Below the pieces are notes generated by a model, which was given only the letters and a program-made list of their open reading frames with translations, made no database searches and was not told where the DNA came from. Of a stretch of DNA of 64,000 bases, positions 9,232 to 21,653 are shown piece by piece (position 1 is the first letter of the stretch; each line of letters opens with the position of its first letter). Origin of the DNA: Candidatus Paralachnospira sangeri (GTDB lineage: Bacteria; Bacillota; Clostridia; Lachnospirales; Lachnospiraceae); contig CAJFOT010000128.1 in the NCBI GenBank assembly GCA_904397815.1, forward strand, positions 6,027-70,026, given 5' to 3'. The position numbers were made by a program, and so were the translations under genes.

Positions 9232-10224
9232 TTACTGTCTGCTGCTGTGTCCGCCGAATACGTCAAAGGTCATGGAATCCAGCCGGGAGTCGATGGCCGC
9301 GATTTCTTCCTTCGTCAGCAGGATATCGGCTGCCTCCAGGTTTTCCTTCAGCCGTTCCGGTTTCCTTGAGCCGGGGATCGGGATGATATAAGGCTTCTTG
9401 TTTAGCATCCATGCCAGGGAAATCTGGCTGACAGCGGCATGCTTTTTTTCTGCCAGCTGATCCAGCAGTTCCAGCAGCGCCTTTCCCTTTTCATAGCCGT
9501 CTTCCGTATACTGGGGCATATCCGCCCGGTAATCCTGGCTTCCCTCAAATTGGGTCTGGGGGGTATACTTTCCGGTCAGGAACCCGTTGGCCAGCGGTGA
9601 AAAAGCCACATAGGCCACATCCAGCTCTTCGCACACCGGGAAAAGATTTTCATGCCATCTGGCCATCATCGAATACCGGTTCTGAATTGCGGTTACAGGG
9701 CATACCTGATTTGCCCTTCTCAGATATTCCTCCATTGCCTCGGAGATTCCCCAGCTGCGTATTTTTCCCTCTCTGATCAGCCGGGACATCACTTCTGCCA
9801 CTGTCTCCGGCTCCACCTTCGGGTCGATCCGGTGCTGATAATAAAGGTCTATGTAATCCGTTCCCAGTTTTCTCAGACTTTCTTCCACACTGGAGCGGAT
9901 CGTTTCCGGACGGCTGTCCAGACGCAGACTCCGGTCCTCGTTATGCTGCACGCCCATCTTGGTGGCAATCACCACATGCTGACGCACATCTTTCAGCGCT
10001 TCGCCGACGAGAATCTCATTATAAGAAATAGTACCGTCCGGATAAATTCCTGTGTATACCTCTGCAGTGTCGAAAAAATTGTAACCCATTTCATATGCTT
10101 CCCGGATAACCCTGACAGCTGTCTGATGATCGGTGGGATCCCCTGACGCATGGCTGAATCCCATGCAGCCCAGGCCTACAGGACTGACAGACAGCCCGCT
10201 GTTTCCTAATCTTCTTTTTTCCAT
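9232..10224 (-). CDS. Aldo/keto reductase
   Basis: 330 aa. MEKRRLGNSGLSVSPVGLGCMGF...FFDTAEVY...HRIDP are classical AKR motifs. Confidence 0.9.
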   Translation of the reverse strand: MEKRRLGNSGLSVSPVGLGCMGFSHASGDPTDHQTAVRVIREAYEMGYNFFDTAEVYTGIYPDGTISYNEILVGEALKDVRQHVVIATKMGVQHNEDRSLRLDSRPETIRSSVEESLRKLGTDYIDLYYQHRIDPKVEPETVAEVMSRLIREGKIRSWGISEAMEEYLRRANQVCPVTAIQNRYSMMARWHENLFPVCEELDVAYVAFSPLANGFLTGKYTPQTQFEGSQDYRADMPQYTEDGYEKGKALLELLDQLAEKKHAAVSQISLAWMLNKKPYIIPIPGSRKPERLKENLEAADILLTKEEIAAIDSRLDSMTFDVFGGHSSRQ

Positions 10225-10499
10225 GATGGAATTACCTCCTTGAATGTTTTGGCTTCATTATAATAAAGAAATAAATACGCCAGAAGTTTCCATTTGGAAG
10301 GAGGTATATACCTTTGGGTATACAGTAAAAAATGTAAAATGGAAAATGAAAAATTTTACATTGTCTTTACTGAGTTTTGACAAAATACCCATTTCTTTTA
10401 TGTAGAATTTACGGTACAAATGAATGTATCAATACATTGGGATCATTTTACACAGACAGAAGGATTTTAAGGACTGAGGCAGGAATATTTTTTTTCCTG

Positions 10500-10530
10500 C
10501 CCCGGTTTTTATTATAAAGGATCCGTATTC
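10500..10530 (+). promoter_or_regulatory. Candidate sigma-I-type promoter P1 upstream of sigI
   Basis: CCCC (10500-10503), 20 nt, then CGTATTCT (10524-10531). The same motif recurs at 12236 and 12334. The 8-bp palindrome ggcaggaa/ttcctgcc (10478-10501) overlaps the C-tract. Confidence 0.5.
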
Positions 10531-10552
10531 TATGCTATGGAGGATTGAAGCT

Positions 10553-11281
10553 ATGCAGAAGGAGCATCAGATCGTAAAAGAGGTCTATGCGGCGAAGAAA
10601 GACGCGCAGAAGGCAGATGAGCTGATCCGCGCCTATATTCCCTACATACGTTCTGAAACGTCAAAATGTATTTCCCGCCTCTGCACAGAGCAGGATGATG
10701 AGTTCAGCATCGGTATGATTGCGTTCCATGAGGCAATACTGGGATATGAAAAAGAGAAGGGCGCGTTTTTAAGCTACGCTGCCATGGTGATCCGGAGCCG
10801 CCTGATTGATTTTCAGCGCCGGGAAGCCCGGCACAGGGGGCATCTCTCCCTGAATGAGGCGCAGAACGATGAAGAGCGCACACTGATGGAGGAGCTGGCA
10901 GATGACAGAGATCATTATGAGGAATCTGTCAATCGGGAGGCAACCAGACAGGAGATTGCAGAACTGTCCGCCGTGATGAAGAACTTCGGCGTCACCTTTT
11001 CTGATGTGGCGGATAATTCGCCGAAGCAGCAGAGAACGCTGGAGGCCTGCCGCGCGGCAATCTGCTACGCCGCTGAAAACGCAGAGCTTCTCCGTGAGCT
11101 GCTGCAGACCGGAAAGCTGCCGATGGCGCAGCTGGTCCGGGGCTCCGGCGCAGAACGGAAAACTCTGGAACGCCACAGGAAATATATTCTGGCCATGCTG
11201 CTGATTCAGACCAATGGATATGAGATCATCCGCGGACATCTGCGGCACGTCCTGAAAGGGAAAGGAGGGTTGCCGGCATGA
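10553..11281 (+). CDS. sigI: RNA polymerase sigma factor SigI
   Basis: DDEFSIGMIAFHEAI, NSPKQQ, RKTLERHRKYILAM and TNGY match the B. subtilis SigI signature blocks. I chose the ATG at 10553 (GGAGG 9 nt upstream) over the track start at 10532. The stop overlaps the next gene's start (ATGA). Confidence 0.9.
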   Translation: MQKEHQIVKEVYAAKKDAQKADELIRAYIPYIRSETSKCISRLCTEQDDEFSIGMIAFHEAILGYEKEKGAFLSYAAMVIRSRLIDFQRREARHRGHLSLNEAQNDEERTLMEELADDRDHYEESVNREATRQEIAELSAVMKNFGVTFSDVADNSPKQQRTLEACRAAICYAAENAELLRELLQTGKLPMAQLVRGSGAERKTLERHRKYILAMLLIQTNGYEIIRGHLRHVLKGKGGLPA

Positions 11282-12204
11282 AATATGTGGTGATGGAATG
11301 CTGCCTGAGTTATGCGGTGGTTCTGGACGAAGAAGGCAGATTCCTTAAGGTGGCCAACATGCACTATGAGGTTGGGCAGACCGTAACAGATGTAATTGAG
11401 ATGCAGACTTCCGGCCAGACATCAGCCGGGAAGCAGAAAAAGATAAGAAAATGGATTTATTCGGCGGCGGCGGCCGCGGCGTGCCTGATCCTGGTGTTTA
11501 CCGCGTTATTCCGGACAGAACAGACGCCTTACGCTTCTGTATATATTACCATCAACCCGGAGGTGCGTGTAGATATAGACCAGAATGATACAGTTATCGG
11601 ACTGGAAGGGGTAAATGAGGATGGAAAGCAGCTGGTGGATGGGTACAGCTACCGGAAGAAGCAGCTGGATCTGGTGATGGATGAGCTGGTGGACAGAGCG
11701 ATTGAGATGGGATATCTCTATGAGGGCGGCCAGATTACGCTGACGCTGGACGCGGAAGATGATGAATGGATCGTCAGCCACAGTGAATCTCTGACAAGCC
11801 GGCTGAATGAACATTTGAGAGAGAAGATGAGCGTCACCATCGAGATCCGAGATACAAAAACGGAGAGCCATGAAATCATTATTCCTGTCACGCCGGCAGC
11901 GGAAACGTATCAGTCCTCTGACTACGGAGAAACACAGACACAGGAAAGCAGCGCTTCGCAGACAGCGCCTGAGACCAGTGCCCCGCAGACAGCGCCGCCG
12001 ACCGCAGCTCCGGAACCGGCAGACGGAGACAGCGGTTATGGTGAAGAAGCGGCTGAAGACGGCCAGTCCGCTTATGCGGAACCGAATGACGGCAGCGGAT
12101 CAGACTATGACGATGACGGGGATGACGATGGGGATGACGACAGCGATGATAACGATGATGACGGCGAAGATGGGGATGACGGCGACGATGACGATGATGA
12201 ATAA
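11278..12204 (+). CDS. rsgI: Anti-sigma-I factor RsgI: N-terminal RsgI_N domain, one TM helix, a juxtamembrane domain with an Asn-Pro motif, and an acidic disordered tail
   Basis: MKYVVMECCLSYAVVLDEEGRFLKVANMHYEVGQTV resembles the RsgI N-domain. The TM helix is WIYSAAAAAACLILVFTALF. ITINPEVRVD carries Asn93-Pro94 at 11554-11559. The tail is Ser/Thr/Pro/Ala-rich and ends in DDDGDDDGDDDSDDNDDDGEDGDDGDDDDDE. Confidence 0.85.
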   Translation: MKYVVMECCLSYAVVLDEEGRFLKVANMHYEVGQTVTDVIEMQTSGQTSAGKQKKIRKWIYSAAAAAACLILVFTALFRTEQTPYASVYITINPEVRVDIDQNDTVIGLEGVNEDGKQLVDGYSYRKKQLDLVMDELVDRAIEMGYLYEGGQITLTLDAEDDEWIVSHSESLTSRLNEHLREKMSVTIEIRDTKTESHEIIIPVTPAAETYQSSDYGETQTQESSASQTAPETSAPQTAPPTAAPEPADGDSGYGEEAAEDGQSAYAEPNDGSGSDYDDDGDDDGDDDSDDNDDDGEDGDDGDDDDDE

Positions 12205-12235
12205 AAATAGTAACACAAAAAAATATTTCCGGCGA

Positions 12236-12266
12236 CCCCATTTTTGAAAGAACAGCTCCGTATTCT
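12236..12266 (+). promoter_or_regulatory. Candidate sigma-I-type promoter P2
   Basis: An A-tract, then CCCC (12236-12239), 19 nt, then CGTATTCTGT (12259-12268). Confidence 0.5.
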
Positions 12267-12333
12267 GTAAATGTAACGAGAGGAAAGGACAGACAAGGGC
12301 TTCAAAAAAAGAAAAATAAAAAATATGGTTCCA

Positions 12334-12364
12334 CCCCACTTTTACAAAAGGGCATGCGTAATCT
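12334..12364 (+). promoter_or_regulatory. Candidate sigma-I-type promoter P3
   Basis: An A-tract, then CCCC (12334-12337), 19 nt, then CGTAATCTGT (12357-12366), about 85 nt upstream of the ATG at 12446. Confidence 0.5.
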
Positions 12365-12445
12365 GTATATGAAAGATGAAAAAGAAGCCCTTGAGAATCT
12401 CAGAGAGAATATGAAAATATTACAAAATATTGGAGGAAGATCAGT

Positions 12446-13507
12446 ATGAAAAAAATGAAAGAATTCAGAATGAAGGAAATGGCAGCAGAAAACAGAATCG
12501 GAAAAATGACGAAGTCTCTTCTGACAGCAGGCGCGGTACTGGCGTTAAGCCTTTCCTGTCTGGCGGGATGCGGACAGAATCCTGGCAGCGCAGGAACAGC
12601 AGCAGGCACACAAGCAGCAGTCAGCACAGAGACGGCAGCAGGCACAGAACTGTCGGCCGGAGGGGTACTGTTCCTGAGTGTGAATCCTGAGATCGCGATT
12701 ACCTATGATGAAAATGGAAATGTCACCAAGGTGGAGTCCCGCAACGATGAAGGAGCGAAGATATTAGAAAATTATACAGGATATGAAGGGAAAGCTACCC
12801 GCGAGGTTGTGACGGAACTGGTAACCGCAATCGGAGAAGCCGGTTATTTCGTGGAAGAGATTGAAGGCGAGGCCCGCCAGATCACCATCGAGATCGAGGC
12901 CGGCTCCACACTCCCCAATGACACCTTTCTGGATGAGGTGGCGGCAGATGTCCGCAACTGCGTAAACAGCCACGACTGGCACAGCCCGCTGGATATTCAG
13001 GGTGAGAGCGATTACGGCATGACAGAATATGACGACACGGACTACGGCCCGAATAATGACGGCGTGACTGATTATGACGACACGGACTATGGCCCGAACA
13101 ACGATGGTGTGACTGATTATGATGACACGGATTATGGTCCGAATAACGACGGCGTAACCGACTACAGCGAGACAGCAGCGACAACAACAGCAACAACAGC
13201 AGCAACAACAGCAGCAGCAACAACAGCAGCGGCAGTCTATGATGATACCGACTACGGCCCGAACAATGACGGCGTGACCGATTATGACGATACCGATTAC
13301 GGTCCGAACAACGACGGCGTGACCAACTATGACGACACGGATTACGGCCCGAACAACGACGGCGTGACCAATTATGACGATACCGACTACGGTCCGAACA
13401 ATGACGGCGTGACCGACTACAGTGACAGCGGGGATTCCAATTATGACGACGGAGGCAGCAATTATGATGCCGATGGAGAAGACGGCGACAGCGGATATGA
13501 TGATTAA
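12446..13507 (+). CDS. Secreted lipoprotein with an RsgI-ectodomain-like domain, seven 15-aa acidic repeats and an acidic tail
   Basis: The signal peptide plus lipobox is LSCLAGC. LSVNPEIAITYDENGNVTKVESRNDEGAKIL...ELVTAIGEAGY parallels RsgI residues about 88-160. The repeat YDDTDYGPNNDGVT(D/N) occurs seven times. The RBS GGAGG lies 9 nt upstream. Confidence 0.85.
   Translation: MKKMKEFRMKEMAAENRIGKMTKSLLTAGAVLALSLSCLAGCGQNPGSAGTAAGTQAAVSTETAAGTELSAGGVLFLSVNPEIAITYDENGNVTKVESRNDEGAKILENYTGYEGKATREVVTELVTAIGEAGYFVEEIEGEARQITIEIEAGSTLPNDTFLDEVAADVRNCVNSHDWHSPLDIQGESDYGMTEYDDTDYGPNNDGVTDYDDTDYGPNNDGVTDYDDTDYGPNNDGVTDYSETAATTTATTAATTAAATTAAAVYDDTDYGPNNDGVTDYDDTDYGPNNDGVTNYDDTDYGPNNDGVTNYDDTDYGPNNDGVTDYSDSGDSNYDDGGSNYDADGEDGDSGYDD
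13028..13417 (+). repeat. In-frame 45-nt tandem repeats in two blocks (3 units at 13028-13162, 4 units at 13238-13417), separated by a 75-nt segment (13163-13237) that is mostly an (ACA/GCA)n Thr/Ala linker
   Basis: The units encode YDDTDYGPNNDGVT plus D or N. The peptides are identical while the units differ at synonymous sites (for example ggcccgaataatgacggcgtg, ggcccgaacaacgatggtgtg and ggtccgaataacgacggcgta). Confidence 0.95.
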
Positions 13508-14198
13508 GGCGGAGAAGAAACCGCTCCGACTGCGGCATGAACGGAAACATGTGATAAACCCTCAGGATGACCTGGAATTGTCCGGACGCCTGCGCAGACT
13601 GTTCTCCCATGACAAACACGCTGACTCACACGGGATCTACCGTGTGAGCAGCCTGTACTTTGATACGCCCTATGACAAGGCGCTCCGGCAGAAAGCGGAC
13701 GGCGTGGACCGCAGAGAAAAATTCCGGCTCAGGTTTTACAATGGAGACACTTCCTTTATCCGTCTGGAGAAAAAAATCAAGATGAATGGTCTGTGCGGGA
13801 AATACAGCGCCCGGCTGACGGCCGGGCAGACAGAACTGCTGCTGAAAGGAGAACTGGATTTTCTGAAAAACAGCGGCGATCCTCTTTTGCTGGAACTCTA
13901 CAGCAAAATGCAGGGGCAGCTCCTTGCGCCGAAAACTATTGTGACGTATGACCGGGAGGCTTTCCTGTACGGCCCCGGAAATGTAAGGATTACGATAGAC
14001 CGGAACCTGCGTACCGGCCTGGGCAGCACTGATTTTCTGAACCCGGAACTGTTTCATGTCGGTGTTTCGGACGGCATGGCGGTTTTAGAAGTCAAGTATG
14101 ATCAGTTTCTGCCGGAGCTGGTCAGAATGGCGGTTCAGACACCCAACCGGCAGACGGCCCCCTTTTCCAAATATGCGGTCTGCCGGAAATACGACTGA
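13497..14198 (+). CDS. VTC-domain (triphosphate-tunnel, polyphosphate-polymerase-like) protein
   Basis: YRVSSLYFDTPYDKALRQKADGVDRREKFRLRFY... is typical of bacterial VTC/TTM domain proteins. I chose the ATG at 13497, which overlaps the upstream stop by 11 nt. The track ORF starts further upstream inside the lipoprotein gene. Confidence 0.8.
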   Translation: MMIKAEKKPLRLRHERKHVINPQDDLELSGRLRRLFSHDKHADSHGIYRVSSLYFDTPYDKALRQKADGVDRREKFRLRFYNGDTSFIRLEKKIKMNGLCGKYSARLTAGQTELLLKGELDFLKNSGDPLLLELYSKMQGQLLAPKTIVTYDREAFLYGPGNVRITIDRNLRTGLGSTDFLNPELFHVGVSDGMAVLEVKYDQFLPELVRMAVQTPNRQTAPFSKYAVCRKYD

Positions 14199-14216
14199 TG
14201 GCAGGAGGACTTTTTT

Positions 14217-14888
14217 ATGACGTTTCAGAATATTTTTCAATCTTCCTTTTTGGAAAACGTGTCGGCGATTCCGCCCTTCGATATGGCGCTGGCGCTGATT
14301 CTGGCCTTTCTGACCGGCCTGTTCATATTTTTTGTGTATAAAAAGACCTATGCCGGCGTGATGTATTCAGCCACCTTCGGCATCAGCCTGATTGCCCTCT
14401 GCATGATCACGGCGCTGCTGATCCTGGCGGTGACCAGCAATATCGTTCTTTCTCTGGGAATGGTGGGCGCCCTCTCGATCGTCCGGTTCCGGACGGCGGT
14501 GAAGGAACCCTTCGATATTGTGTTTCTGTTCTGGGCTATCGCGGCGGGGATTGTACTGGCTTCCGGTTTTATTCCGCTGGCAGTTCTGGGCAGTATGCTG
14601 ATTGGTCTGGTTCTGATGGTTTTTTCCCGGTATAAGGGATTTGAAAAGCCCTATATTCTGGTGCTTCACTGTGAGAATGATGAGACAGAGAAGGCTGCTT
14701 TTTCCTTTCTGGACGGAAAGGCAGGGAGGATCTGCCTGAAAAGCAAGAGTGTGGCGCCCGGCTGTATTGAGCTGCATTATGAAGTGCGCCTGAAGGACGG
14801 GGATACGGATTTTATCAATCAGCTGTCCCAGCTGCCCGGTGTGTCCCACATTGTGATGGTGTCCTACAATGGCGATTATATGAGCTGA
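14217..14888 (+). CDS. DUF4956-family membrane protein
   Basis: 223 aa with 4-5 TM helices and then a soluble C-terminal domain of about 70 aa. It occupies the characteristic neighbourhood between VTC and CotH genes. The RBS AGGAGG is present. Confidence 0.75.
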   Translation: MTFQNIFQSSFLENVSAIPPFDMALALILAFLTGLFIFFVYKKTYAGVMYSATFGISLIALCMITALLILAVTSNIVLSLGMVGALSIVRFRTAVKEPFDIVFLFWAIAAGIVLASGFIPLAVLGSMLIGLVLMVFSRYKGFEKPYILVLHCENDETEKAAFSFLDGKAGRICLKSKSVAPGCIELHYEVRLKDGDTDFINQLSQLPGVSHIVMVSYNGDYMS

Positions 14889-16297
14889 TGCCTATGATGA
14901 GATCCCGATATATTGACATGATCTGTATTCTGGGCGCTGCCGCGGCCCTGACGCTGACAGTTCTCTTTATGAATGGCGAGAAACTGGGGCTAACGCCCGC
15001 ATCCTCGATTCCCGGATATGAGACGCGGCTTTTCGACCCGTCGAGGGTACATACCATTGACATAATCATAGAGGACTGGGAGGGGTTTCTGGACAGCGCG
15101 CCGGAAGAGGAATACAGTCCGTGTACACTGATTATCGACGGAGAAGCCTTTTCCAATGTGGCATTGCGGGCGAAGGGAAATAATTCCCGGCGGCTGACAG
15201 AGGAATACGGACTGGACCGGTACAGCCTGAAGGTGGAATTCGACCATTATACTTACAGCAGCTACTATGGCCTGGATAAGTTTTCCCTGGACGCATCTTT
15301 TCAGGACAACAGTTATATGAAAACCTGGATTGCCTATGACATGATGGCGTATATGGGAGTTCCCACACCCCTGTGCAGCTATGTGTGGGTGCGGGTGAAC
15401 GGAGAGGACTGGGGGCTGTTTCTGGCGGTGGAGGAGCCGGAGGAGGCATTTGCCAGGAGAAACTTCGGAAAGGATTACGGGCAGCTGTATAAGCCGGATT
15501 ACAGGTCTCTGAATGATGAAAACGCGGATGTAGCTCTCCGCTATACGGATGATGATATCGACAGCTATGACAATATATTCCGCAACGCAAAATTTAACCC
15601 GTCCGACGGGGATAAGAGAGCGCTGATCGGGGCGCTGAAAACCCTTTCCTCCGGTGAAAATCTGGAATCCGCGGTGAATGTGGATGAGGTGCTGAGATAT
15701 TTTACGGTGCAGGTTTTTGTGGTAAATCTGGACAGCTATCTGGGGCGCACCGGACATAACTATTTTCTGTATGAAGAGGATGGGCGGATCAGCATCCTGC
15801 CCTGGGATTATAATCTGGCCTTTGCCACCTATTCTCTGGGGATGCCTGACCCGGTCAATGATTCCACCCTATATGTCAATTATCCCATTAACACGCCGGC
15901 TGCCGGAGAGGTGATGCTGAACCGTCCCCTCTACCATAATCTGATGAAGCACGATGAATATTTCGCCCGGTATCACGCGTATTTCGACCAGCTGATCGGG
16001 GGATATTTCGAGAGCGGATATTTTGAGGATTTTATAGATCAGACGCTGGAAATGATCCGCCCCTGGGCGGAGAAAGACCCGACAGCTTTCTGCTCTTATG
16101 AGGACTTTCTCCTGGGAGTGGATACTATAAAGGAATTTTGTCTGCTGCGGGCAGAGAGTGTGAGAGGACAGCTGGATGGAGAGATCCCTTCCACAATCAG
16201 AGGGCAGACGGAAGACAGCAGTTCCTTCGTGAATGCCTCCTCTGTATGGCTGCCGGATATGGGTGAGATCGCGGATCTGGAGGACGGTGTCCGCTGA
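14888..16297 (+). CDS. cotH: CotH-family atypical protein kinase, membrane-anchored and extracytoplasmic
   Basis: 469 aa. The N-terminal anchor is MICILGAAAALTLTVLF. The conserved CotH core is GHNYFLYEEDGRISILPWDYNLAF. The start overlaps the DUF4956 stop (TGATG). Confidence 0.85.
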   Translation: MPMMRSRYIDMICILGAAAALTLTVLFMNGEKLGLTPASSIPGYETRLFDPSRVHTIDIIIEDWEGFLDSAPEEEYSPCTLIIDGEAFSNVALRAKGNNSRRLTEEYGLDRYSLKVEFDHYTYSSYYGLDKFSLDASFQDNSYMKTWIAYDMMAYMGVPTPLCSYVWVRVNGEDWGLFLAVEEPEEAFARRNFGKDYGQLYKPDYRSLNDENADVALRYTDDDIDSYDNIFRNAKFNPSDGDKRALIGALKTLSSGENLESAVNVDEVLRYFTVQVFVVNLDSYLGRTGHNYFLYEEDGRISILPWDYNLAFATYSLGMPDPVNDSTLYVNYPINTPAAGEVMLNRPLYHNLMKHDEYFARYHAYFDQLIGGYFESGYFEDFIDQTLEMIRPWAEKDPTAFCSYEDFLLGVDTIKEFCLLRAESVRGQLDGEIPSTIRGQTEDSSSFVNASSVWLPDMGEIADLEDGVR

Positions 16298-16309
16298 CTG
16301 GCAGACTGG

Positions 16310-17773
16310 TTACAGAAGTCTGTGCTTCTGCTGATACAGCTCCAGAATATCGACAGACAGCTGACAGTATTTGCGGGCGTAGGCATCGTCCAGACTGTGC
16401 TCCAGAATTTCCTGGATTTTCCGGATCCGGTACAGAACGGTATTCCGGTGAGTAAACAGCGCTGTGCTGGCCCGGGAGACAGAACGCTCATTGTCCAGAA
16501 ATATCTTCAGGGTGTGGAACAGCTCGTCCCCGTTTACCTGGCTCTGTTCCCACAGCTGGATCACCGCGGGCATGCAGGCATGTACCGACTTGATCAGAGA
16601 GTCGGATTCGACGATATAATCAATGGCATAATCGAAGAAATCATAATAGTTATCCTGGGGATGGAACATTTTTCCGGTGGCGGCGGCATAGGCGGCCTGG
16701 GCGTACAGATAGCCGGCCTGCTCGATGCCTTTGCAGGGCAGGCTGAAGCTGACCTTCACCGGATTGCGTGCCTCCAGGTAGCGGAAAAATTCCTGCATGG
16801 CCGGATCTTTCCGGAGGTTCCGGTTGGAAAACATCAGAATATAGGGCTGTTTTTTCATAACAATACAATTCTTTACCTGCTGGAGGATAACCTGCATTAC
16901 CAGATCCAGGCTCCTGTCCGGATCGCCCCGCCCGTCCTGACTGACAATTTCTGCCAGAGCCAGATAGTAGCAGTCGTCGGCATTCCATCCCTGGTATTCC
17001 AGCTGGGTTTCCAGCAGCTTTTCATCGTAAGCATTTCCGAACAGAATGTTGTAGAACACATTGGTATTATTCAGAAAGCTTTCATAATAAATCTGTCCCA
17101 GGCTGGGTTCCAGCATGGCGGCTATGTACTCCAGCAGCTGCCAGTCGCCTGGGTTGGTGGCACGTTCCTTTTCCAGGACGGTAATCCTTCCGCACACAGC
17201 GTCATTGCAGTATAAACAATAGGAAATGCCGTTGTAGGCCAGGGTCTTATTGCGGGAGAAGCGGAAGGACTGGGTGCCATGCTGCCAGAAATCTGCGGCG
17301 GTGTGGTTATTCCGCATCTGCTGCATGGCGTTCAGAGAGGTGTAGCCGTACTGACAGAGATAGGCCCATTCCTCGTCCAGCGAGTCGGCCGGATACTGTC
17401 TGGTGATGGCCAGCACACGGCTGTTGCCGTCCAGAATCATCATAGGATTTTGAAAGACCTGCCACGCCAGGTCGATCACACCCTGGTAATCTCTCCGGCG
17501 GATCAGCTGAATCAGCTGGTCGGCCCAATCCTGGAAATAATCGAAGACACTCTGGATAATTTCCACCCCCTGAGTGACGTCCATATTGTGGACGCGGATG
17601 GTATCTCCCTCGCCGCTGCAGACCAGATCTTCCCCTTCCCGGTATACATGTACACAGTTTGTGGCATAAACCCGGCGGGCGCTTTTCAGCACAACGGGGG
17701 CATTATTTTTAATATCCAGAACCATATCCAGGGAAGACAGGCGGTTGGCGATCATCCACATACTCAGCTTCAT
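16310..17773 (-). CDS. PucR-family transcriptional regulator
   Basis: 487 aa. The C-terminal PucR-type HTH is SVSRASTALFTHRNTVLYRIRKIQEIL. It is divergent from the transporter operon. Confidence 0.85.
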   Translation of the reverse strand: MKLSMWMIANRLSSLDMVLDIKNNAPVVLKSARRVYATNCVHVYREGEDLVCSGEGDTIRVHNMDVTQGVEIIQSVFDYFQDWADQLIQLIRRRDYQGVIDLAWQVFQNPMMILDGNSRVLAITRQYPADSLDEEWAYLCQYGYTSLNAMQQMRNNHTAADFWQHGTQSFRFSRNKTLAYNGISYCLYCNDAVCGRITVLEKERATNPGDWQLLEYIAAMLEPSLGQIYYESFLNNTNVFYNILFGNAYDEKLLETQLEYQGWNADDCYYLALAEIVSQDGRGDPDRSLDLVMQVILQQVKNCIVMKKQPYILMFSNRNLRKDPAMQEFFRYLEARNPVKVSFSLPCKGIEQAGYLYAQAAYAAATGKMFHPQDNYYDFFDYAIDYIVESDSLIKSVHACMPAVIQLWEQSQVNGDELFHTLKIFLDNERSVSRASTALFTHRNTVLYRIRKIQEILEHSLDDAYARKYCQLSVDILELYQQKHRLL

Positions 17774-18000
17774 AAAACAGCACTCCTTTTTTTATATCGT
17801 TTAAATTGTCCGACTAATATGCATAATTATCCAGGGTACTTTTGTATTTTAGATAAAATTCAGAGGGAAGAACAGAGATTGAATTTACAAAATTTACAGA
17901 TTACTGACGAAGGAAAATTGTGCGGGGGATACATGGCAACCTGCTACAGGTCCGGTATAATAAAGACATCGAATTTCACAGCAAGGGGGTTGCATGATTT

Positions 18001-19395
18001 ATGCAAGAAAAAAGTTTAAGTTCAGCACAGGTAAATAAATATGGCTTTTACCTGCTGACTTCGTCATTGGCGGCGATGGTTCAGATGACATATCTGACGA
18101 TTTTTATGACAGATATTATTATGATTCCCACGGCAGTGGTTGCCTCTACCCTTCTGATTGCCAGAATCATAGATTTTCTGATCGGCGTGATCTGCGGCGG
18201 TATTATTGAAAAGTTCCGGATGCCATGGGGAAAGTATCGTTCCTGGCTTCTGGTACTTCGGTGGGTAATTATCTTTTCACTGGTATGTTCATTCTTTGAC
18301 ACATCCAGCTGGCCGGTTGCGTTCCGTGTAGGTGTGTCTTTCATCGGATATTTCCTGCTGAATGCGGGTATGAGTTTTACAACAAATGCGTATTATGCGT
18401 TGGGGCCGGCGCTGGCAGGAGCAAATCTCAATGACCGTAACCGGCTCAGCGCCCGCGGTGCTCAGTTTATGTGTGTGGCAATGCTGATTACATCTGCGCT
18501 GACCATTCCGCTGGTTACAGCCCTGACACCTGTTGTCGGACCTGCCAATGCTTATCTGATCGTAGCGGTGGTATTTGCCCTGCCCTATATCGGAGGCTGC
18601 CAGATGGTTTCCAATATGTGCCGTGAGTGTGATCCTTCCGGAAAGGCGGAAAAAGGCGGTGCTCAGGCTGGCCCTACTGTAACGCTGGGTGATATGGTCC
18701 GTTCCGTAACACAGAATTCACAGCTGCTGGTTTTGTTTATCGCATATACGATCTATTATATCGGTCTGTATGTGATTTCCGGCCTGGGTACATATTATTT
18801 TACTTATATTGTCGGAGATTTCATGAAAATGTCAGTCAGCATGACAATTACCATGATTACCGGTTTTATCGCTTCTCTGATAATGCCGAAGCTGGGCGGG
18901 AAACTGGGCAAGAAGAAAGCCTTTGTTACCGCGCTGGTTGTATACGCATTGGCTTATGCATGTGTATTCTTCATTGGCGGCAACTGGCCTTTCTATACAC
19001 TGTGCGGCGCGATTGGCGGCGGTGCTGTATACCTGTTCTCCAGTTTTGGCGCAAACTACTTTGTTGACTGCGGTGAGTATCACCTGCACAAGACAGGAAA
19101 AGATACCAGAACAATCGCCATTACGATGTACTCGGTTCCGATGAAAATCGGCATGGCACTGGGCGGCGCGATCGCTACTTACGGACTGGCTTTTATCGGC
19201 TATCATGCCGGCATGACCATCGACGGCGCGTTCCAGACTAAATTTATGTTCCTGTTATCCATTATTCCTGCGGTCCTCGTGCTGATTGGCGCGCTGATTA
19301 TGCTCATTGGCTACAAGATTACTGATGAAGACGCAGCAAGATATGCGGCGGAAAATGCCGCAAGAGCTGCGGAGGCTGCCGCAACAAAGGAATAA
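18001..19395 (+). CDS. MFS transporter, glycoside-pentoside-hexuronide (GPH):cation symporter family
   Basis: 464 aa with about 12 TM helices and a GPH-like N-terminus (YGFYLLTSSLAAMVQMTYLTIFMTD). Confidence 0.8.
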   Translation: MQEKSLSSAQVNKYGFYLLTSSLAAMVQMTYLTIFMTDIIMIPTAVVASTLLIARIIDFLIGVICGGIIEKFRMPWGKYRSWLLVLRWVIIFSLVCSFFDTSSWPVAFRVGVSFIGYFLLNAGMSFTTNAYYALGPALAGANLNDRNRLSARGAQFMCVAMLITSALTIPLVTALTPVVGPANAYLIVAVVFALPYIGGCQMVSNMCRECDPSGKAEKGGAQAGPTVTLGDMVRSVTQNSQLLVLFIAYTIYYIGLYVISGLGTYYFTYIVGDFMKMSVSMTITMITGFIASLIMPKLGGKLGKKKAFVTALVVYALAYACVFFIGGNWPFYTLCGAIGGGAVYLFSSFGANYFVDCGEYHLHKTGKDTRTIAITMYSVPMKIGMALGGAIATYGLAFIGYHAGMTIDGAFQTKFMFLLSIIPAVLVLIGALIMLIGYKITDEDAARYAAENAARAAEAAATKE

Positions 19396-19414
19396 GTGAG
19401 GAAAGGAAAAAGAT

Positions 19415-20449
19415 ATGGCAAAAATGACAGAAAAAGAAAATTATCTGAGAACTCTGCGGGGAGAACAGCCTGAATGGGTGCCGGTATATAGTTTTGGACC
19501 CATGCCGGGGCAGGAACGGCCGTGTACCTCCTGTATGCTGGAGCCTTTGATCCTCAGTGAATTCCGCTTCAATGGCGGCGGGAAGGACTGCTGGGGCGTA
19601 ACCTATGTGCCCACCAAGGAAACCGGCAATGCTCTTCTTCCCAAACCGGGAGAATTTATTCTGGATGACATCCGTCACTGGCGGGATGTGATCAAAGCGC
19701 CGTCACTGGATGGCATTGACTGGGAAGCGATGGCAAATAAGCAGCTGGAAGGCTTTTATAAAATGGGTGTAAACCGAGAGGATACCGCTATTGCCCTGAA
19801 CCTGCATGTAGGATATTTCCAGAATCTGATGGCGTTTATGGGATTTACTGAAGGACTGTGCGCTATGTTCGAGGAACCTGAAGAAGTGAAAGCACTCTTT
19901 GATTATATGTGTGATTTCTACACAGAGGTTACCCGTCAGATCTGGCCTTATGTGAAACCTGATGTGCTGACTCTGATGGATGATACCGCTACCTGGCGGG
20001 CACCTTTCATCTCTGCTGAGATGTATCGGGAGCTGGTATTGCCTTTCCATGACAGACAGGCGAAATTTGGACGAGATGCGGGTATTCCCATTACCATGCA
20101 CAACTGCGGGCGGGCAGAAGATTTTATGGAAGACCTGCGCGGGATCGGCGTCAATGCCTGGGATCCTGCCCAGACATGCAATGATCTGAAAGGAGTGCAG
20201 GAAAAGTTTGGAAACAGCCTTGTGCTGATGGGATGCTGGGACGCAAGAGACCGGCTGATGGCCCCTGATGCAACAGAAGAGGAAATCCGCCAGTCAGTTC
20301 GGGATACCATGGATACTTACGCGCCCGGCGGCGGATTTTGCTGGTGCGGCGGATATCTGGGCGCTGTCGGTGACGAGGAAATCAACAGAAGGAATGCGAT
20401 TCTGTTCGATGAGGTATATAAATACGGCGATGCTTTCTACAAAAAATAA
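19415..20449 (+). CDS. URO-D-superfamily protein, MtaA/CmuA-like putative methyltransferase (paralogue 1)
   Basis: 344 aa with LRGEQPEWVP, DDTATWRAPFISAEMYRELVLPF and MHNCG (an HxC motif), plus later Cys residues (FCWCGGY). It starts 19 nt after the transporter stop. Confidence 0.75.
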   Translation: MAKMTEKENYLRTLRGEQPEWVPVYSFGPMPGQERPCTSCMLEPLILSEFRFNGGGKDCWGVTYVPTKETGNALLPKPGEFILDDIRHWRDVIKAPSLDGIDWEAMANKQLEGFYKMGVNREDTAIALNLHVGYFQNLMAFMGFTEGLCAMFEEPEEVKALFDYMCDFYTEVTRQIWPYVKPDVLTLMDDTATWRAPFISAEMYRELVLPFHDRQAKFGRDAGIPITMHNCGRAEDFMEDLRGIGVNAWDPAQTCNDLKGVQEKFGNSLVLMGCWDARDRLMAPDATEEEIRQSVRDTMDTYAPGGGFCWCGGYLGAVGDEEINRRNAILFDEVYKYGDAFYKK

Positions 20450-20567
20450 TATCAGCTTAATGTCATTTGCTTTATAATGAAAGTATTGCAGAGACTTGCT
20501 TACGGAGCCTTCCTTGAATTACAGAGAAGGCTTCGCGGCGCAACAATAAAAAGGGGGAAAAGAATTT

Positions 20568-21653
20568 ATGACAGTTGGAAAATTTATGCAGACAGCGGCA
20601 AATCGTGATTACTCAAAAGAATGGCAGGCTCCGGGCAGCTTTCCCTGGATTATCCAGAGACCGAAAGAGCCTATTACGGGAAGACCTTACAGCGTAAGGG
20701 AGAACTATATTCGCTGTGTAAAGGGAGAACAGCCTTACTGGATGCCCTGCTACATGTATGAAACCAATACGATCTGGCCGGACGCCATGGAAGAGCATCC
20801 TGTTCCCGAGGTAGACGGCTATGACTGGTGGGGTGTATACTGGACAATGGTAGAGTCAGTAGGCGGCATGATTACGAAACCAGGGACCAGAACCATTTCT
20901 GATTTTGCAAAGTGGAAGGAAGAACTGGAGTGGCCGGATCTGTCTGTAGTGGATTTCAAGACAGACGGCGAGAAGATTCAGAAGATGCTGGACCCCGAAC
21001 GGGCTCATATCTATGAGAGCGTGGAAGGCATTTTTGAGCGTCTTCATGAGATGATTCCTTTTGACGAATCTTTGATGGCTTTCTATGAGGAACCGGAACT
21101 GCTGGAAGAGTTTTTCCAGAAGATGGCGGACTATAAAATAGAGTCTACTCAGAAGATCTTTGATTATTATGGCCGGGTGGACGGCGTTCTCTATCATGAT
21201 GACTGGGGGACCCAGAGAGCAGGCTTCTTCTCGAATAAGATGTTCCGTGAGCAGCTGATGCCGGCTACAAGCCGTTATCTGAAATTTATCAAGGATCAGG
21301 GCAAGTTTATTGAGCTCCATTCCTGCGGCAAAAATGTACAGTACGTTCCGGAGATGATCGAGATGGGCATCGATATGTGGACCCCTCAGTCCGGAATTAA
21401 TGATCCTGATTATCTGTATGAAAACTATGGCGATCAGATGACCTTTGCCTTCTTTGTACAGATCGACCCGAAAGCAGATGAGGCTGAGGTAAGAAGAGTA
21501 GTCAGAGATTTCGTTGATCATTTTGGCGCAAAAGGCCGGTGTATGCCTTGCTTCATGACAGATATGAGCAATCCGATGCAGGATACTGTTGCTAAGGATG
21601 AGCTGTACAACTATTCACTGGAATACTACAATAAACTGTACAACAGAGGCTGA
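20568..21653 (+). CDS. URO-D-superfamily protein, MtaA/CmuA-like putative methyltransferase (paralogue 2)
   Basis: 361 aa with VKGEQPYWMP, HDDWGTQRAGFFSNKMFREQLMP and LHSCG (an HxC motif), plus CMPC. It is collinear with paralogue 1. Confidence 0.75.
   Translation: MTVGKFMQTAANRDYSKEWQAPGSFPWIIQRPKEPITGRPYSVRENYIRCVKGEQPYWMPCYMYETNTIWPDAMEEHPVPEVDGYDWWGVYWTMVESVGGMITKPGTRTISDFAKWKEELEWPDLSVVDFKTDGEKIQKMLDPERAHIYESVEGIFERLHEMIPFDESLMAFYEEPELLEEFFQKMADYKIESTQKIFDYYGRVDGVLYHDDWGTQRAGFFSNKMFREQLMPATSRYLKFIKDQGKFIELHSCGKNVQYVPEMIEMGIDMWTPQSGINDPDYLYENYGDQMTFAFFVQIDPKADEAEVRRVVRDFVDHFGAKGRCMPCFMTDMSNPMQDTVAKDELYNYSLEYYNKLYNRG

Follow-up and report, generated by a model that had tools for sequence, protein, structure and literature searches.

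SigI and RsgI, a sigma factor and its membrane-bound anti-sigma factor, are the best-developed case of mechanotransduction in bacteria; to our knowledge, the signals that they receive and the outputs that they control are largely unknown outside Bacillus and the cellulosome producers. This report concerns a sigI-rsgI locus of Candidatus Paralachnospira sangeri (assembly GCA_904397815.1, contig CAJFOT010000128.1), in which the gene following rsgI encodes a predicted lipoprotein that is an ancient paralogue of the RsgI ectodomain and heads an operon with genes for VTC-domain, DUF4956 and CotH-family proteins. All positions refer to the forward strand of the 64,000-nt stretch of DNA that was analysed, hereafter the window.

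Several of the parts are known from elsewhere. The SEAL domain undergoes autoproteolysis between an Asn and a Pro residue, and the cleaved ectodomain is retained (PMC10556640); Asn-Pro cleavage is also documented in PMC10328401. Autocleavage has likewise been shown for the SEAL domains of two non-RsgI families (Brogan 2023, PMC10556640). In Bacillus subtilis, the disordered region of RsgI mediates envelope sensing (PMC9732909). Both the autoproteolysis and the sensing through a disordered region had been mentioned in an earlier note on this DNA, made from its sequence alone, in agreement with this literature. Promoters recognized by SigI follow the consensus ACCCCC..AA-N15-CGAA....T in the Bacillales, and the clostridial -10 element is CGWA (PMC4711584; PMC10575876). 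As for the downstream genes, Bacillus CotH poly-phosphorylates the Ser-rich repeat regions of CotB and CotG (PMC7821199), and VTC, DUF4956 and CotH together are accessory genes of Gram-positive pel loci (PMC7112168); in Streptococcus intermedius this triad aids Pel-dependent aggregation, and the authors of that work found it only at pel loci (PMC12345266).

A predicted lipid-anchored paralogue of the RsgI ectodomain

The lipoprotein gene and the parts of its product are as follows.

12446..13507, + strand: gene of the SEAL-domain lipoprotein, an open reading frame of 353 aa
12446..12571, + strand: signal peptide, ending in the lipobox LAGC, with the codon of Cys42 at 12569-12571
12656..12991, + strand: SEAL (RsgI_M) domain, residues 71-182, with N80-P81 at 12683-12688
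13001..13504, + strand: acidic tail of about 170 residues, predicted to be disordered (predicted local confidence, pLDDT, 40-49) and devoid of secondary structure

The 353-residue protein (...GGVLFLSVNPEI...) is a predicted lipoprotein carrying its lipid on Cys42: the N-terminus, MKK...SLLTAGAVLALSLSCLAGC, reads as a charged n-region, a hydrophobic core and the lipobox L-A-G-C, and a strong ribosome-binding site (GGAGGAAG) stands 7 nt before the start codon. In the AlphaFold model of the full-length protein, a helix corresponding to the signal peptide (residues 2-40) is followed by a low-confidence linker (43-70), the SEAL domain and a C-terminal part (186-353) with pLDDT of 40-49; after the predicted processing, the SEAL domain would be preceded only by the lipid-modified Cys42 and some 30 linker residues. 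The protein does not qualify as an anti-sigma factor of the RsgI type, for Pfam finds no RsgI_N match in it, its N-terminus being a signal peptide, and it has no single transmembrane helix, its only hydrophobic segment ending in the lipobox. Since both anti-sigma domain and transmembrane helix are missing, cleavage of the lipoprotein could not trigger intramembrane proteolysis.

The earlier note had called this protein an ectodomain-only paralogue of RsgI, sharing with it the SEAL region, an Asn-Pro motif and an acidic tail, and had suggested a search with the RsgI middle-domain profile as well as pairwise and AlphaFold structure comparisons as checks; these have now been run, and all of them bear the claim out. 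The Pfam model PF23750 (RsgI_M; curated cut-off 25.3 bits) matches residues 77-172 of the lipoprotein with E 4.5e-13 and 50.4 bits and is the only domain there, while RsgI and the lipoprotein align by BLASTP with 25% identity (E 1e-9), their NP motifs falling in register. When a profile of 20 diverse lipoprotein SEAL domains (alignment A1) is compared by hhalign with one of 20 RsgI SEAL domains from related cassettes (alignment A2), the probability is 97.7% and E 2e-12 over 75 columns. AlphaFold predicts the SEAL domain with a pLDDT of 79, or 89-98 when the alignment is deeper, and RsgI structures make up six of the top seven Foldseek matches of the domain model in the PDB, the best being B. 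subtilis RsgI (8t9n; E 4e-6, TM 0.64/0.75) and the next being Clostridium thermocellum RsgI2, RsgI6 and RsgI1 (8hdj, 8her, 8hep), with 8heq (RsgI2) at rank 9. The coordinates and sequences of the two Asn-Pro motifs, at 11554-11559 in rsgI and 12683-12688 in the lipoprotein gene, were confirmed in the translations, and the motifs align at equivalent positions. In the model, V79-N80-P81 form a three-residue turn joining beta1 (73-78) and beta2 (82-87), which is the hairpin geometry of the mapped RsgI cleavage site (PMC10556640; PMC10328401).

The protein belongs to a large family. A search of 5.8 billion proteins returned homologues in 352 clusters at 90% identity, the best 120 of which are 200-350 aa long, match PF23750 only and are unnamed or labelled 'hypothetical'; a lipobox is present in 117 of these 120 and NP followed by an acidic or polar residue in all 120, and their tails consist of the TDYGPNNDGVTDY repeat or of simpler x-S/T-D/N/G-Y-D/G units. 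(Lipoboxes and transmembrane segments were assigned by visual inspection and with regular expressions, that for the lipobox being [LVI][ASTVI][GAS]C.) In a profile search of 1.84 billion representatives, 136 clusters (50% identity) reached E <= 1e-30, and the SEAL domain of each begins 30-60 residues from the N-terminus; among the top 150 representatives, 138 have the lipobox and 144 the NP. In a second set of homologues, used for identity comparison across loci, NP is kept in 81/81. N, P, E and the downstream Asn of an N-x-D motif (RNDDG) are invariant in 20 diverse homologues, and the Asp of RNDDG is nearly so. In some SEAL relatives (P0180, P0191, P0214, P0229, P0244-P0246 and others), one or more PepSY-like domains, with the pattern ..AKxIALxHAGV...YELEF...YEYDIDAxTGxIL, replace the acidic repeats after the SEAL domain. 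No curated NCBIfam family matched the lipoprotein, RsgI, VTC or CotH proteins of the window.

For genomic comparison, one genome per species was scanned and relatives were found in 309 genomes, assigned to the Lachnospiraceae, Oscillospiraceae, Erysipelotrichaceae, Peptostreptococcaceae, Peptococcaceae, Anaerovoracaceae, Christensenellales and others. Context statistics are those of the best 80 of the 309 loci, counted as independent with kinship ignored, and synteny denominators (e.g. n=67) are the loci with enough flank; neighbours were assigned with phmmer, using the window proteins against all open reading frames of the fetched loci. Mean SEAL identity is 0.56 among the lipoproteins and 0.47 among the cassette RsgIs but only 0.20 between RsgI and lipoprotein, even within one locus, a contrast that points to an old split of two SEAL lineages. 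The hairpins are lineage-specific, reading (S/K/R)VNPEI in the lipoproteins and (T/S)INPEV in RsgI. The lipoprotein and the RsgI ectodomain are ancient paralogues, the former having a predicted lipid anchor in place of the anti-sigma domain and transmembrane helix. A pairwise identity of just 25% could also suggest chance similarity, or a functionless decayed piece of a duplicated rsgI; such an origin is for practical purposes ruled out by the significance of the profile, profile-profile and fold comparisons and by conservation within the family, the lipobox, NP hairpin and repeats being intact across 309 species genomes and 136 clusters (50% identity).

Within the SEAL domain, a near-invariant acidic loop, AGYFVEEIEGExRQITIEIE, coincides with a local dip in model confidence, and a strongly conserved segment, W-x-S-P-V-D-V-x-G-E-S-D-Y-G-x-T-D-Y, joins the SEAL core to the repeats (window 12992-13000; A1 columns 113-130). 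To judge from their sequences, both look like interaction surfaces. The loop and its confidence dip, a pattern typical of an interaction site, together with the side-by-side encoding of the paralogous domains in 64/67 loci, would suit a co-sensor, in which the lipoprotein SEAL domain pairs or swaps beta1 strands with that of RsgI and, by stabilizing or destabilizing cleaved RsgI, sets the threshold of site-2 proteolysis. However, the beta1 strands are family-specific (GGVLxLxVNPEI in the lipoprotein, YASVYxxINPEV in RsgI), and 20-60 linker residues separate the lipoprotein domain from its anchor, whereas the RsgI domain is juxtamembrane; strand sharing of this kind is very improbable.

Predicted control by SigI

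The genes upstream of the lipoprotein gene and the candidate promoters are listed below.

10553..11281, + strand: sigI, 242 aa from the ATG at 10553 (the list of open reading frames begins it at 10532)
11278..12204, + strand: rsgI, 308 aa, its start overlapping the sigI stop (ATGA)
10500..10527, + strand: SigI-type promoter of sigI, CCCC (10500-10503)-N20-CGTA (10524-10527), then TTCT
12236..12262, + strand: SigI-type promoter P1 of the lipoprotein gene, CCCC-N19-CGTA, then TTCTGTAAATG
12334..12360, + strand: SigI-type promoter P2 of the lipoprotein gene, a tandem copy, CCCC-N19-CGTA, then ATCTGTATATG

SigI is identified by the NCBIfam SigI models (E 1.8e-53), and Pfam Sigma70_r2 also matches. 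The real start of the gene is probably the ATG at 10553, which is preceded by a GGAGG ribosome-binding site at 10539-10543, since the promoter predicts that transcription begins at about 10538, beyond the ATG at 10532; the 242-aa product is then like its orthologues in related loci, which have about 243 aa. RsgI (...YASVYITINPEV...; N93-P94) has the full B. subtilis-type architecture, with an anti-sigma N-domain (residues 4-37), a transmembrane helix (about 59-77), a SEAL domain (85-196) and an acidic, Tyr-containing tail (about 200-308). Pfam RsgI_M matches residues 85-196 with E 5e-23, and RsgI_N matches with E 8e-5, just under its cut-off.

Before the lipoprotein gene stand two near-identical elements in tandem, 98 bp apart, ACCCCATTTTTGAAAGAACAGCTCCGTATTCTGTAAATG (from 12235) and ACCCCACTTTTACAAAAGGGCATGCGTAATCTGTATATG (from 12333). 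The motif CCCCNNTTT-N14-CGTA has two matches in the window, which are these two sites, where 0.02 would be expected. Among related loci, ACCCC-N19/20-CGTA precedes the lipoprotein gene in 76/79 (0.6 expected), with at least two copies in 23/79, and precedes sigI in 54/68 (0.24 expected from shuffled sequence); the 1.14 Mb of DNA from these loci contains 136 copies of the extended motif, each of them before sigI or in the spacer between rsgI and the lipoprotein gene. The cassette motif agrees with the published SigI promoters, except that a T-tract stands where clostridial promoters have an A-tract. Because SigI autoregulates, and the motif is found only at sigI and the lipoprotein operon, there is good comparative evidence that this operon is a direct target of SigI, and it is here taken as a predicted member of the SigI regulon; the earlier note's description of the gene as apparently under SigI control is thereby given a conserved promoter motif common to sigI and the lipoprotein gene only.

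Other regulatory signals are few. A generic scan for sigma-70 promoters and terminators gave matches no commoner than in shuffled sequence; it detected no terminator between rsgI and the lipoprotein gene, so that read-through from the sigI promoter into the latter is possible. An Rfam search of window 10000-16600 (E <= 0.1) found no known riboswitch or leader in the 5' untranslated region. A GC-rich hairpin, GGCAGGAATATTTTTTTTCCTGCC, at 10478-10501 abuts the -35 element of the sigI promoter; it may act as a terminator that insulates against transcription from upstream, or it may have a regulatory role.

A conserved six-gene cassette

The earlier note had missed that the lipoprotein gene heads an operon with three further genes.

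13497..14198, + strand: VTC-domain protein (Pfam VTC, E 5e-37), polyphosphate-polymerase-like, without signal peptide, cytoplasmic
14217..14888, + strand: DUF4956 membrane protein (Pfam DUF4956, E 1e-9), with four hydrophobic segments and a C-terminal soluble domain
14888..16297, + strand: CotH-family kinase (Pfam CotH, E 1.7e-59), with a membrane anchor at about residues 9-27

The start of the VTC gene (ATGATG, 13497-13502) overlaps the end of the lipoprotein gene (TAA, 13505-13507), and the start of cotH overlaps the DUF4956 stop. A search of PDB sequences with the VTC protein gave no match. The DUF4956 protein has a weak NCBIfam match to MgtC/SapB and fits the description of S. intermedius SIR_1592 (PMC12345266). 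The CotH protein aligns to Bacillus cereus CotH (5jd9; E 4e-16) and keeps two Asp residues 23 apart (NLDSY ... PWDYN) equivalent to the catalytic residues D228 and D251 of B. subtilis CotH; given its N-terminal hydrophobic anchor, the kinase domain would face outward.

The six-gene cassette is conserved over many families of Clostridia and Erysipelotrichia. The lipoprotein gene has sigI and rsgI directly before it in 64/67 loci and VTC, DUF4956 and CotH directly after it in 57/67, CotH alone in 3/67 and none of the three in 7/67; for another locus, independent gene calls and precomputed Pfam labels gave the same gene order. In six loci sigI-rsgI is divergent and the lipoprotein gene remains with VTC-DUF4956-CotH, which argues that it is the first gene of the triad's operon, while five loci keep sigI-rsgI and the lipoprotein gene without CotH. 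CotH directly follows the lipoprotein gene, without VTC and DUF4956, in L023, L049 and L056, an arrangement suggesting that the lipoprotein is linked more tightly to CotH than to the putative polyphosphate genes. The genome JAZTZZ01 (L019 7183-9511, L020) has two lipoprotein-VTC-DUF4956-CotH operons, one after rsgI and the other adjoining a divergent histidine-kinase/response-regulator pair; the latter also bears the SigI-type promoter motif and so might be controlled in trans.

As to the surroundings, a gene for PPK1, the classical polyphosphate kinase, lies about 3 kb upstream of the cassette in L081 (1-2006), probably by coincidence. The window cassette is flanked by an aldo-keto reductase gene and, on the opposite strand, by a gene for a PucR-family regulator; the genes at 16310-21653, namely this regulator (minus strand), an MFS/sugar transporter and two URO-D-like (methyltransferase-type) genes, appear unrelated to it. 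A tblastn search of 72,556 plasmids with the SEAL domain gave no match, and so there is no evidence for a plasmid-borne cassette.

The repeat tails and their link to CotH

In the lipoprotein tail, 15-aa repeats, DYDDTDYGPNNDGVT, form two blocks (13014-13155 and 13238-13414), for which Tandem Repeats Finder gives a period of 45 bp and 3.2 and 3.9 copies; a Thr/Ala spacer (13172-13235) parts the blocks, and the C-terminus is made up of (D/G)(S/N)(G/N)YDD units. The DTDYGPNNDGVTDY repeats of which the tail is built have a motif that is conserved family-wide. In the earlier note the tails of both proteins had been described as low-complexity and acidic: acidic they are, but generic low complexity was rejected, since the 15-aa repeat is conserved across families. 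The degenerate repeat-like unit that the same note had picked out in the RsgI tail, PNDGSGSDYDDDGDD, does resemble the lipoprotein repeat PNNDGVTDYDDTDYG. An antisense open reading frame (12882-13619, minus strand, 245 aa, rich in Arg, His and Ser) spans the repeat region and is most likely no gene but an artefact of repeat codon composition.

The two tails share an acidic [S/T]-[D/N/G]-Tyr motif. The window RsgI tail contains DSGYG, QSAYA and SGSDYDD, other cassette RsgIs have, for example, DGQTDYDD, GDSGYG or DSDYDD, and the RsgI tail of L068 holds a full DYGPNNDGVTDY unit. Motif density, with the motif defined as [polar/acidic]-x-x-Y-[D/G/E/N/S], is 3.0 per 100 aa in the lipoproteins, 1.6 in RsgI and 0.02 in the other open reading frames of the loci. 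Moreover, the tails co-vary by lineage: in Gemmiger both consist of GDSGY(E/D), and in Erysipelotrichia both consist of D(S/T)DYDD. The cosine of tail 3-mer composition is 0.287 for pairs from the same locus against 0.160 between loci, a value that 0/2000 permutations reach and that is inflated by shared ancestry. The conservation of a Tyr motif implies a specific partner, in contrast to B. subtilis-type tails, which work when scrambled.

The composition of the tails follows the presence of CotH. When units are counted as [S/T][D/N/G]Y, the lipoprotein tail has at least 10 in 60/60 CotH-positive loci, with Tyr at about 13%, whereas such units occur in 0/7 CotH-negative loci, where lipoprotein tails are about 74% Asp. 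RsgI tails with at least two units are found in 47/54 CotH-positive and 0/5 CotH-negative loci, the cognate RsgI tails of the latter shifting in the same direction as the lipoprotein tails. The poly-Asp loci (L048, L057, L059, L061, L069, L077, L079) have 67-86% Asp and sometimes regularly spaced Trp. No sigI-rsgI pair lies nearby in L077 and L079, the former having almost no upstream flank.

These data bear on two ways of reading the lipoprotein that leave CotH aside. The first, put forward in the earlier note along with a co-sensor, is a pure decoy that provides negative feedback: induced by SigI, the lipoprotein would compete for whatever pulls on the tail, be shed in place of RsgI and damp signalling, with CotH, VTC and DUF4956 as other SigI outputs. 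The SEAL domain and tail motif common to the two proteins, the co-variation of their tails, the strong induction suggested by tandem SigI-type promoters, and the NP hairpin, whose conservation in every family member examined implies that release matters, are all in keeping with it, as are the five loci that have sigI, rsgI and the lipoprotein gene but no CotH, and SEA-domain mucins work as releasable decoys (PMC2752161, PMC6491460). It leaves unexplained, however, why the S/T-x-Y motif is lost from both tails exactly where CotH is absent and why the lipoprotein and CotH are so often co-transcribed, even without VTC and DUF4956, and the conservation of the lipoprotein SEAL domain above that of RsgI (0.56 vs 0.47) goes beyond what a passive tether needs. 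A decoy pure and simple is a serious but rather unlikely explanation.

The second is a structural coat, in which a mucin-like, acidic surface polymer binds cations such as Ca2+, the SEAL domain is a shedding device only, and the likeness to RsgI reflects descent and not shared signalling. Here the very acidic and repetitive tail, pure poly-Asp in some lineages, would find a ready explanation, as would repeat numbers that differ among close relatives by 15-aa steps, as in surface proteins, and a layout of anchor, SEA-like domain and tandem repeats shared with membrane mucins. Against this stand the almost obligatory linkage to sigI-rsgI (64/67 loci) with a promoter in common with sigI, the co-variation with the RsgI tail, and the failure of AlphaFold, in a model without ions, to give the repeats a fold; a coat of this sort is improbable. 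Both the cation-binding coat and the SEAL-SEAL co-sensor are weaker alternatives than the decoy. As regards repeat number itself, near-identical lipoproteins from different samples (P0002-P0011) have 248, 263, 278 and 308 aa, differing by steps of the 15-aa repeat, and the number appears to be polymorphic between strains.

A proposed mechanism

The favoured reading, to which a probability of roughly 0.55 is given, sees in the lipoprotein a surface protein that SigI induces and force can release, with a tail that is the twin of the sensor's and is probably a target of CotH. By this account, pulling apart the cleaved SEAL domain of RsgI would lead to site-2 proteolysis and free SigI, which would then transcribe its own operon and that of the lipoprotein, VTC, DUF4956 and CotH. 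The lipoprotein would cleave itself between N80 and P81, its SEAL core and tail being held non-covalently on the lipid-anchored beta1 strand until force releases them, as described for RsgI and SEA-domain mucins; the universal conservation of NP in the lipoproteins suggests that this cleavage matters. Outward-facing CotH, as the most likely partner, would modify the S/T-x-Y repeats of both tails and, because both display the same tail, sensor and lipoprotein would meet the same partner. The VTC/DUF4956 pair might supply polyphosphate. The sensor would thus report on a surface state that the operon changes, closing a feedback loop.

Several points weigh against this reading. Cleavage of the lipoprotein, its dependence on SigI and the action of CotH on the tails are all inferred from sequence. 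We know of no extracellular source of ATP, and the polyphosphate idea is speculation. The tail could bind cations instead of being modified; the repeat loosely recalls calcium-binding loops of the DxDxDG type, with several positions in common, a point that belongs to the structural coat discussed above. In CotH-positive loci, 7/54 RsgI tails lack the motif, and in that of L010 Phe stands in place of Tyr, which speaks against an indispensable role for Tyr as phospho-acceptor in that tail. The p-value also overstates how strongly CotH and the motif are associated, for the seven CotH-negative loci represent perhaps five independent lineages. Finally, the known CotH substrates are basic Ser/Lys/Arg repeats and not acidic Tyr repeats (PMC7821199).

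A more elaborate version of the favoured reading would be a circuit for surface homeostasis, in which CotH, fuelled by polyphosphate that VTC makes and DUF4956 exports, modifies both tails, the modification state of the RsgI tail determines how readily the cleaved SEAL domain of RsgI comes apart, and SigI senses and corrects the phosphorylation or charge of the coat that the lipoprotein forms. This is a long shot; if true, it would be the first loop of extracellular protein phosphorylation tied to bacterial mechanotransduction and would give the VTC-DUF4956-CotH triad its first function.

Irrespective of that circuit, a compact and widespread SigI cassette is hereby defined in gut and rumen Firmicutes, with a regulon that can be read from promoters and a first product that is a copy of the sensor's outer half. 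The tail has thereby become accessible to study in a protein with no signalling role of its own. The cassette joins SigI to the unexplained VTC-DUF4956-CotH triad, otherwise known only from Pel loci and a Clostridium perfringens pathogenicity locus. The S/T-x-Tyr repeats (peptide DTDYGPNNDGVTDYDD) are a candidate substrate or ligand for a non-spore CotH kinase, and SEAL domains may hold a releasable repeat polymer on the cell surface, as SEA domains do in mucins.

Comparison with known systems

SEAL domains, Asn-Pro autoproteolysis and SEAL proteins without anti-sigma domains are already published, and the existing Pfam model already recognizes the lipoprotein. Literature searches on SEAL lipoproteins with anti-sigma factors, SigI/RsgI with CotH, and CotH with polyphosphate did not find the present arrangement, nor was a description found of a family of SEAL-plus-repeat lipoproteins, the supplementary architecture tables of Brogan 2023 lying outside the search. 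What is undescribed in that literature is the fixed place between rsgI and VTC-DUF4956-CotH, the SigI-type promoter, and the tail motif that is shared with RsgI and tied to CotH. The earlier note's remark that it knew of no such arrangement agrees with these searches; it had missed the SEAL proteins without an anti-sigma domain or transmembrane segment (SEAL-PepSY fusions) in Brogan et al. 2023.

The closest relative by fold is B. subtilis RsgI, which, like the lipoprotein, has an extracytoplasmic SEAL domain with Asn-Pro in a three-residue hairpin, a disordered C-terminal tail and no further domain (PMC9732909, PMC10556640). Unlike it, the lipoprotein has neither anti-sigma domain nor transmembrane helix, and its SEAL domain is carried on a linker of about 30 residues instead of being juxtamembrane. 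Tails of the B. subtilis type are depleted of aromatic residues and tolerate scrambling (PMC9732909), whereas the cassette tails carry a conserved Tyr repeat. A parallel for two proteins with one kind of tail is B. subtilis RsgI and PBP1, a sensor and a second envelope protein whose similar disordered tails are directed to the same envelope feature (PMC9732909); PBP1, however, is an enzyme and not a SEAL protein, while the second protein of the cassette is a paralogue of the sensor under a predicted promoter of the sensor's sigma factor.

The SEAL-PepSY proteins (Brogan 2023) also have a SEAL domain outside an anti-sigma factor and no transmembrane segment, and they are among the nearest representatives of the lipoprotein family. 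They are described as having PepSY domains and no disordered region, whereas the lipoprotein family has a long repeat tail and no PepSY domain and, unlike them, is fixed between rsgI and VTC-DUF4956-CotH behind a SigI-type promoter. In C. thermocellum, RsgI1-9 and their SigI factors resemble the cassette in the autoregulated sigI-rsgI pair, the shared promoter motif (-10 CGWA) and the Asn-Pro autocleavage site (PMC10328401, PMC4711584, PMC6056542). Those RsgIs, however, end in carbohydrate-binding modules and control cellulosome genes, while the cassette RsgI has no binding module, ACCCC is followed by a T-tract in the -35 region, and the products of the target operon are a SEAL paralogue, VTC, DUF4956 and CotH.

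As to the downstream genes, CotH of Bacillus spores, with CotG and CotB, offers the precedent of a CotH encoded beside a disordered tandem-repeat protein, and its catalytic Asp residues are kept in the cassette CotH (PMC7821199); the spore substrates are basic and located in the mother cell, whereas the cassette repeats are acidic S/T-x-Tyr units and both partners are predicted to lie outside the membrane. The NELoc-2 locus of C. perfringens has sigI, a gene for a 348-aa hypothetical protein, and VTC, DUF4956-like and CotH genes in a row, as in the cassette (PMC2879425). Unlike the pel loci, the cassette contains no pel genes, and its triad is tied to sigI-rsgI and a SEAL lipoprotein.

In overall layout, the lipoprotein is most reminiscent of MUC1-type mucins, which likewise consist of an anchor, an autoproteolytic SEA-type domain and a long disordered region of tandem repeats (PMC2752161, PMC6491460). 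The SEA and SEAL domains are thought to be convergent, with no sequence relationship, and the anchor of the lipoprotein is a lipid; the mucin ectodomain is held non-covalently and can be shed, and the same is predicted for the lipoprotein.

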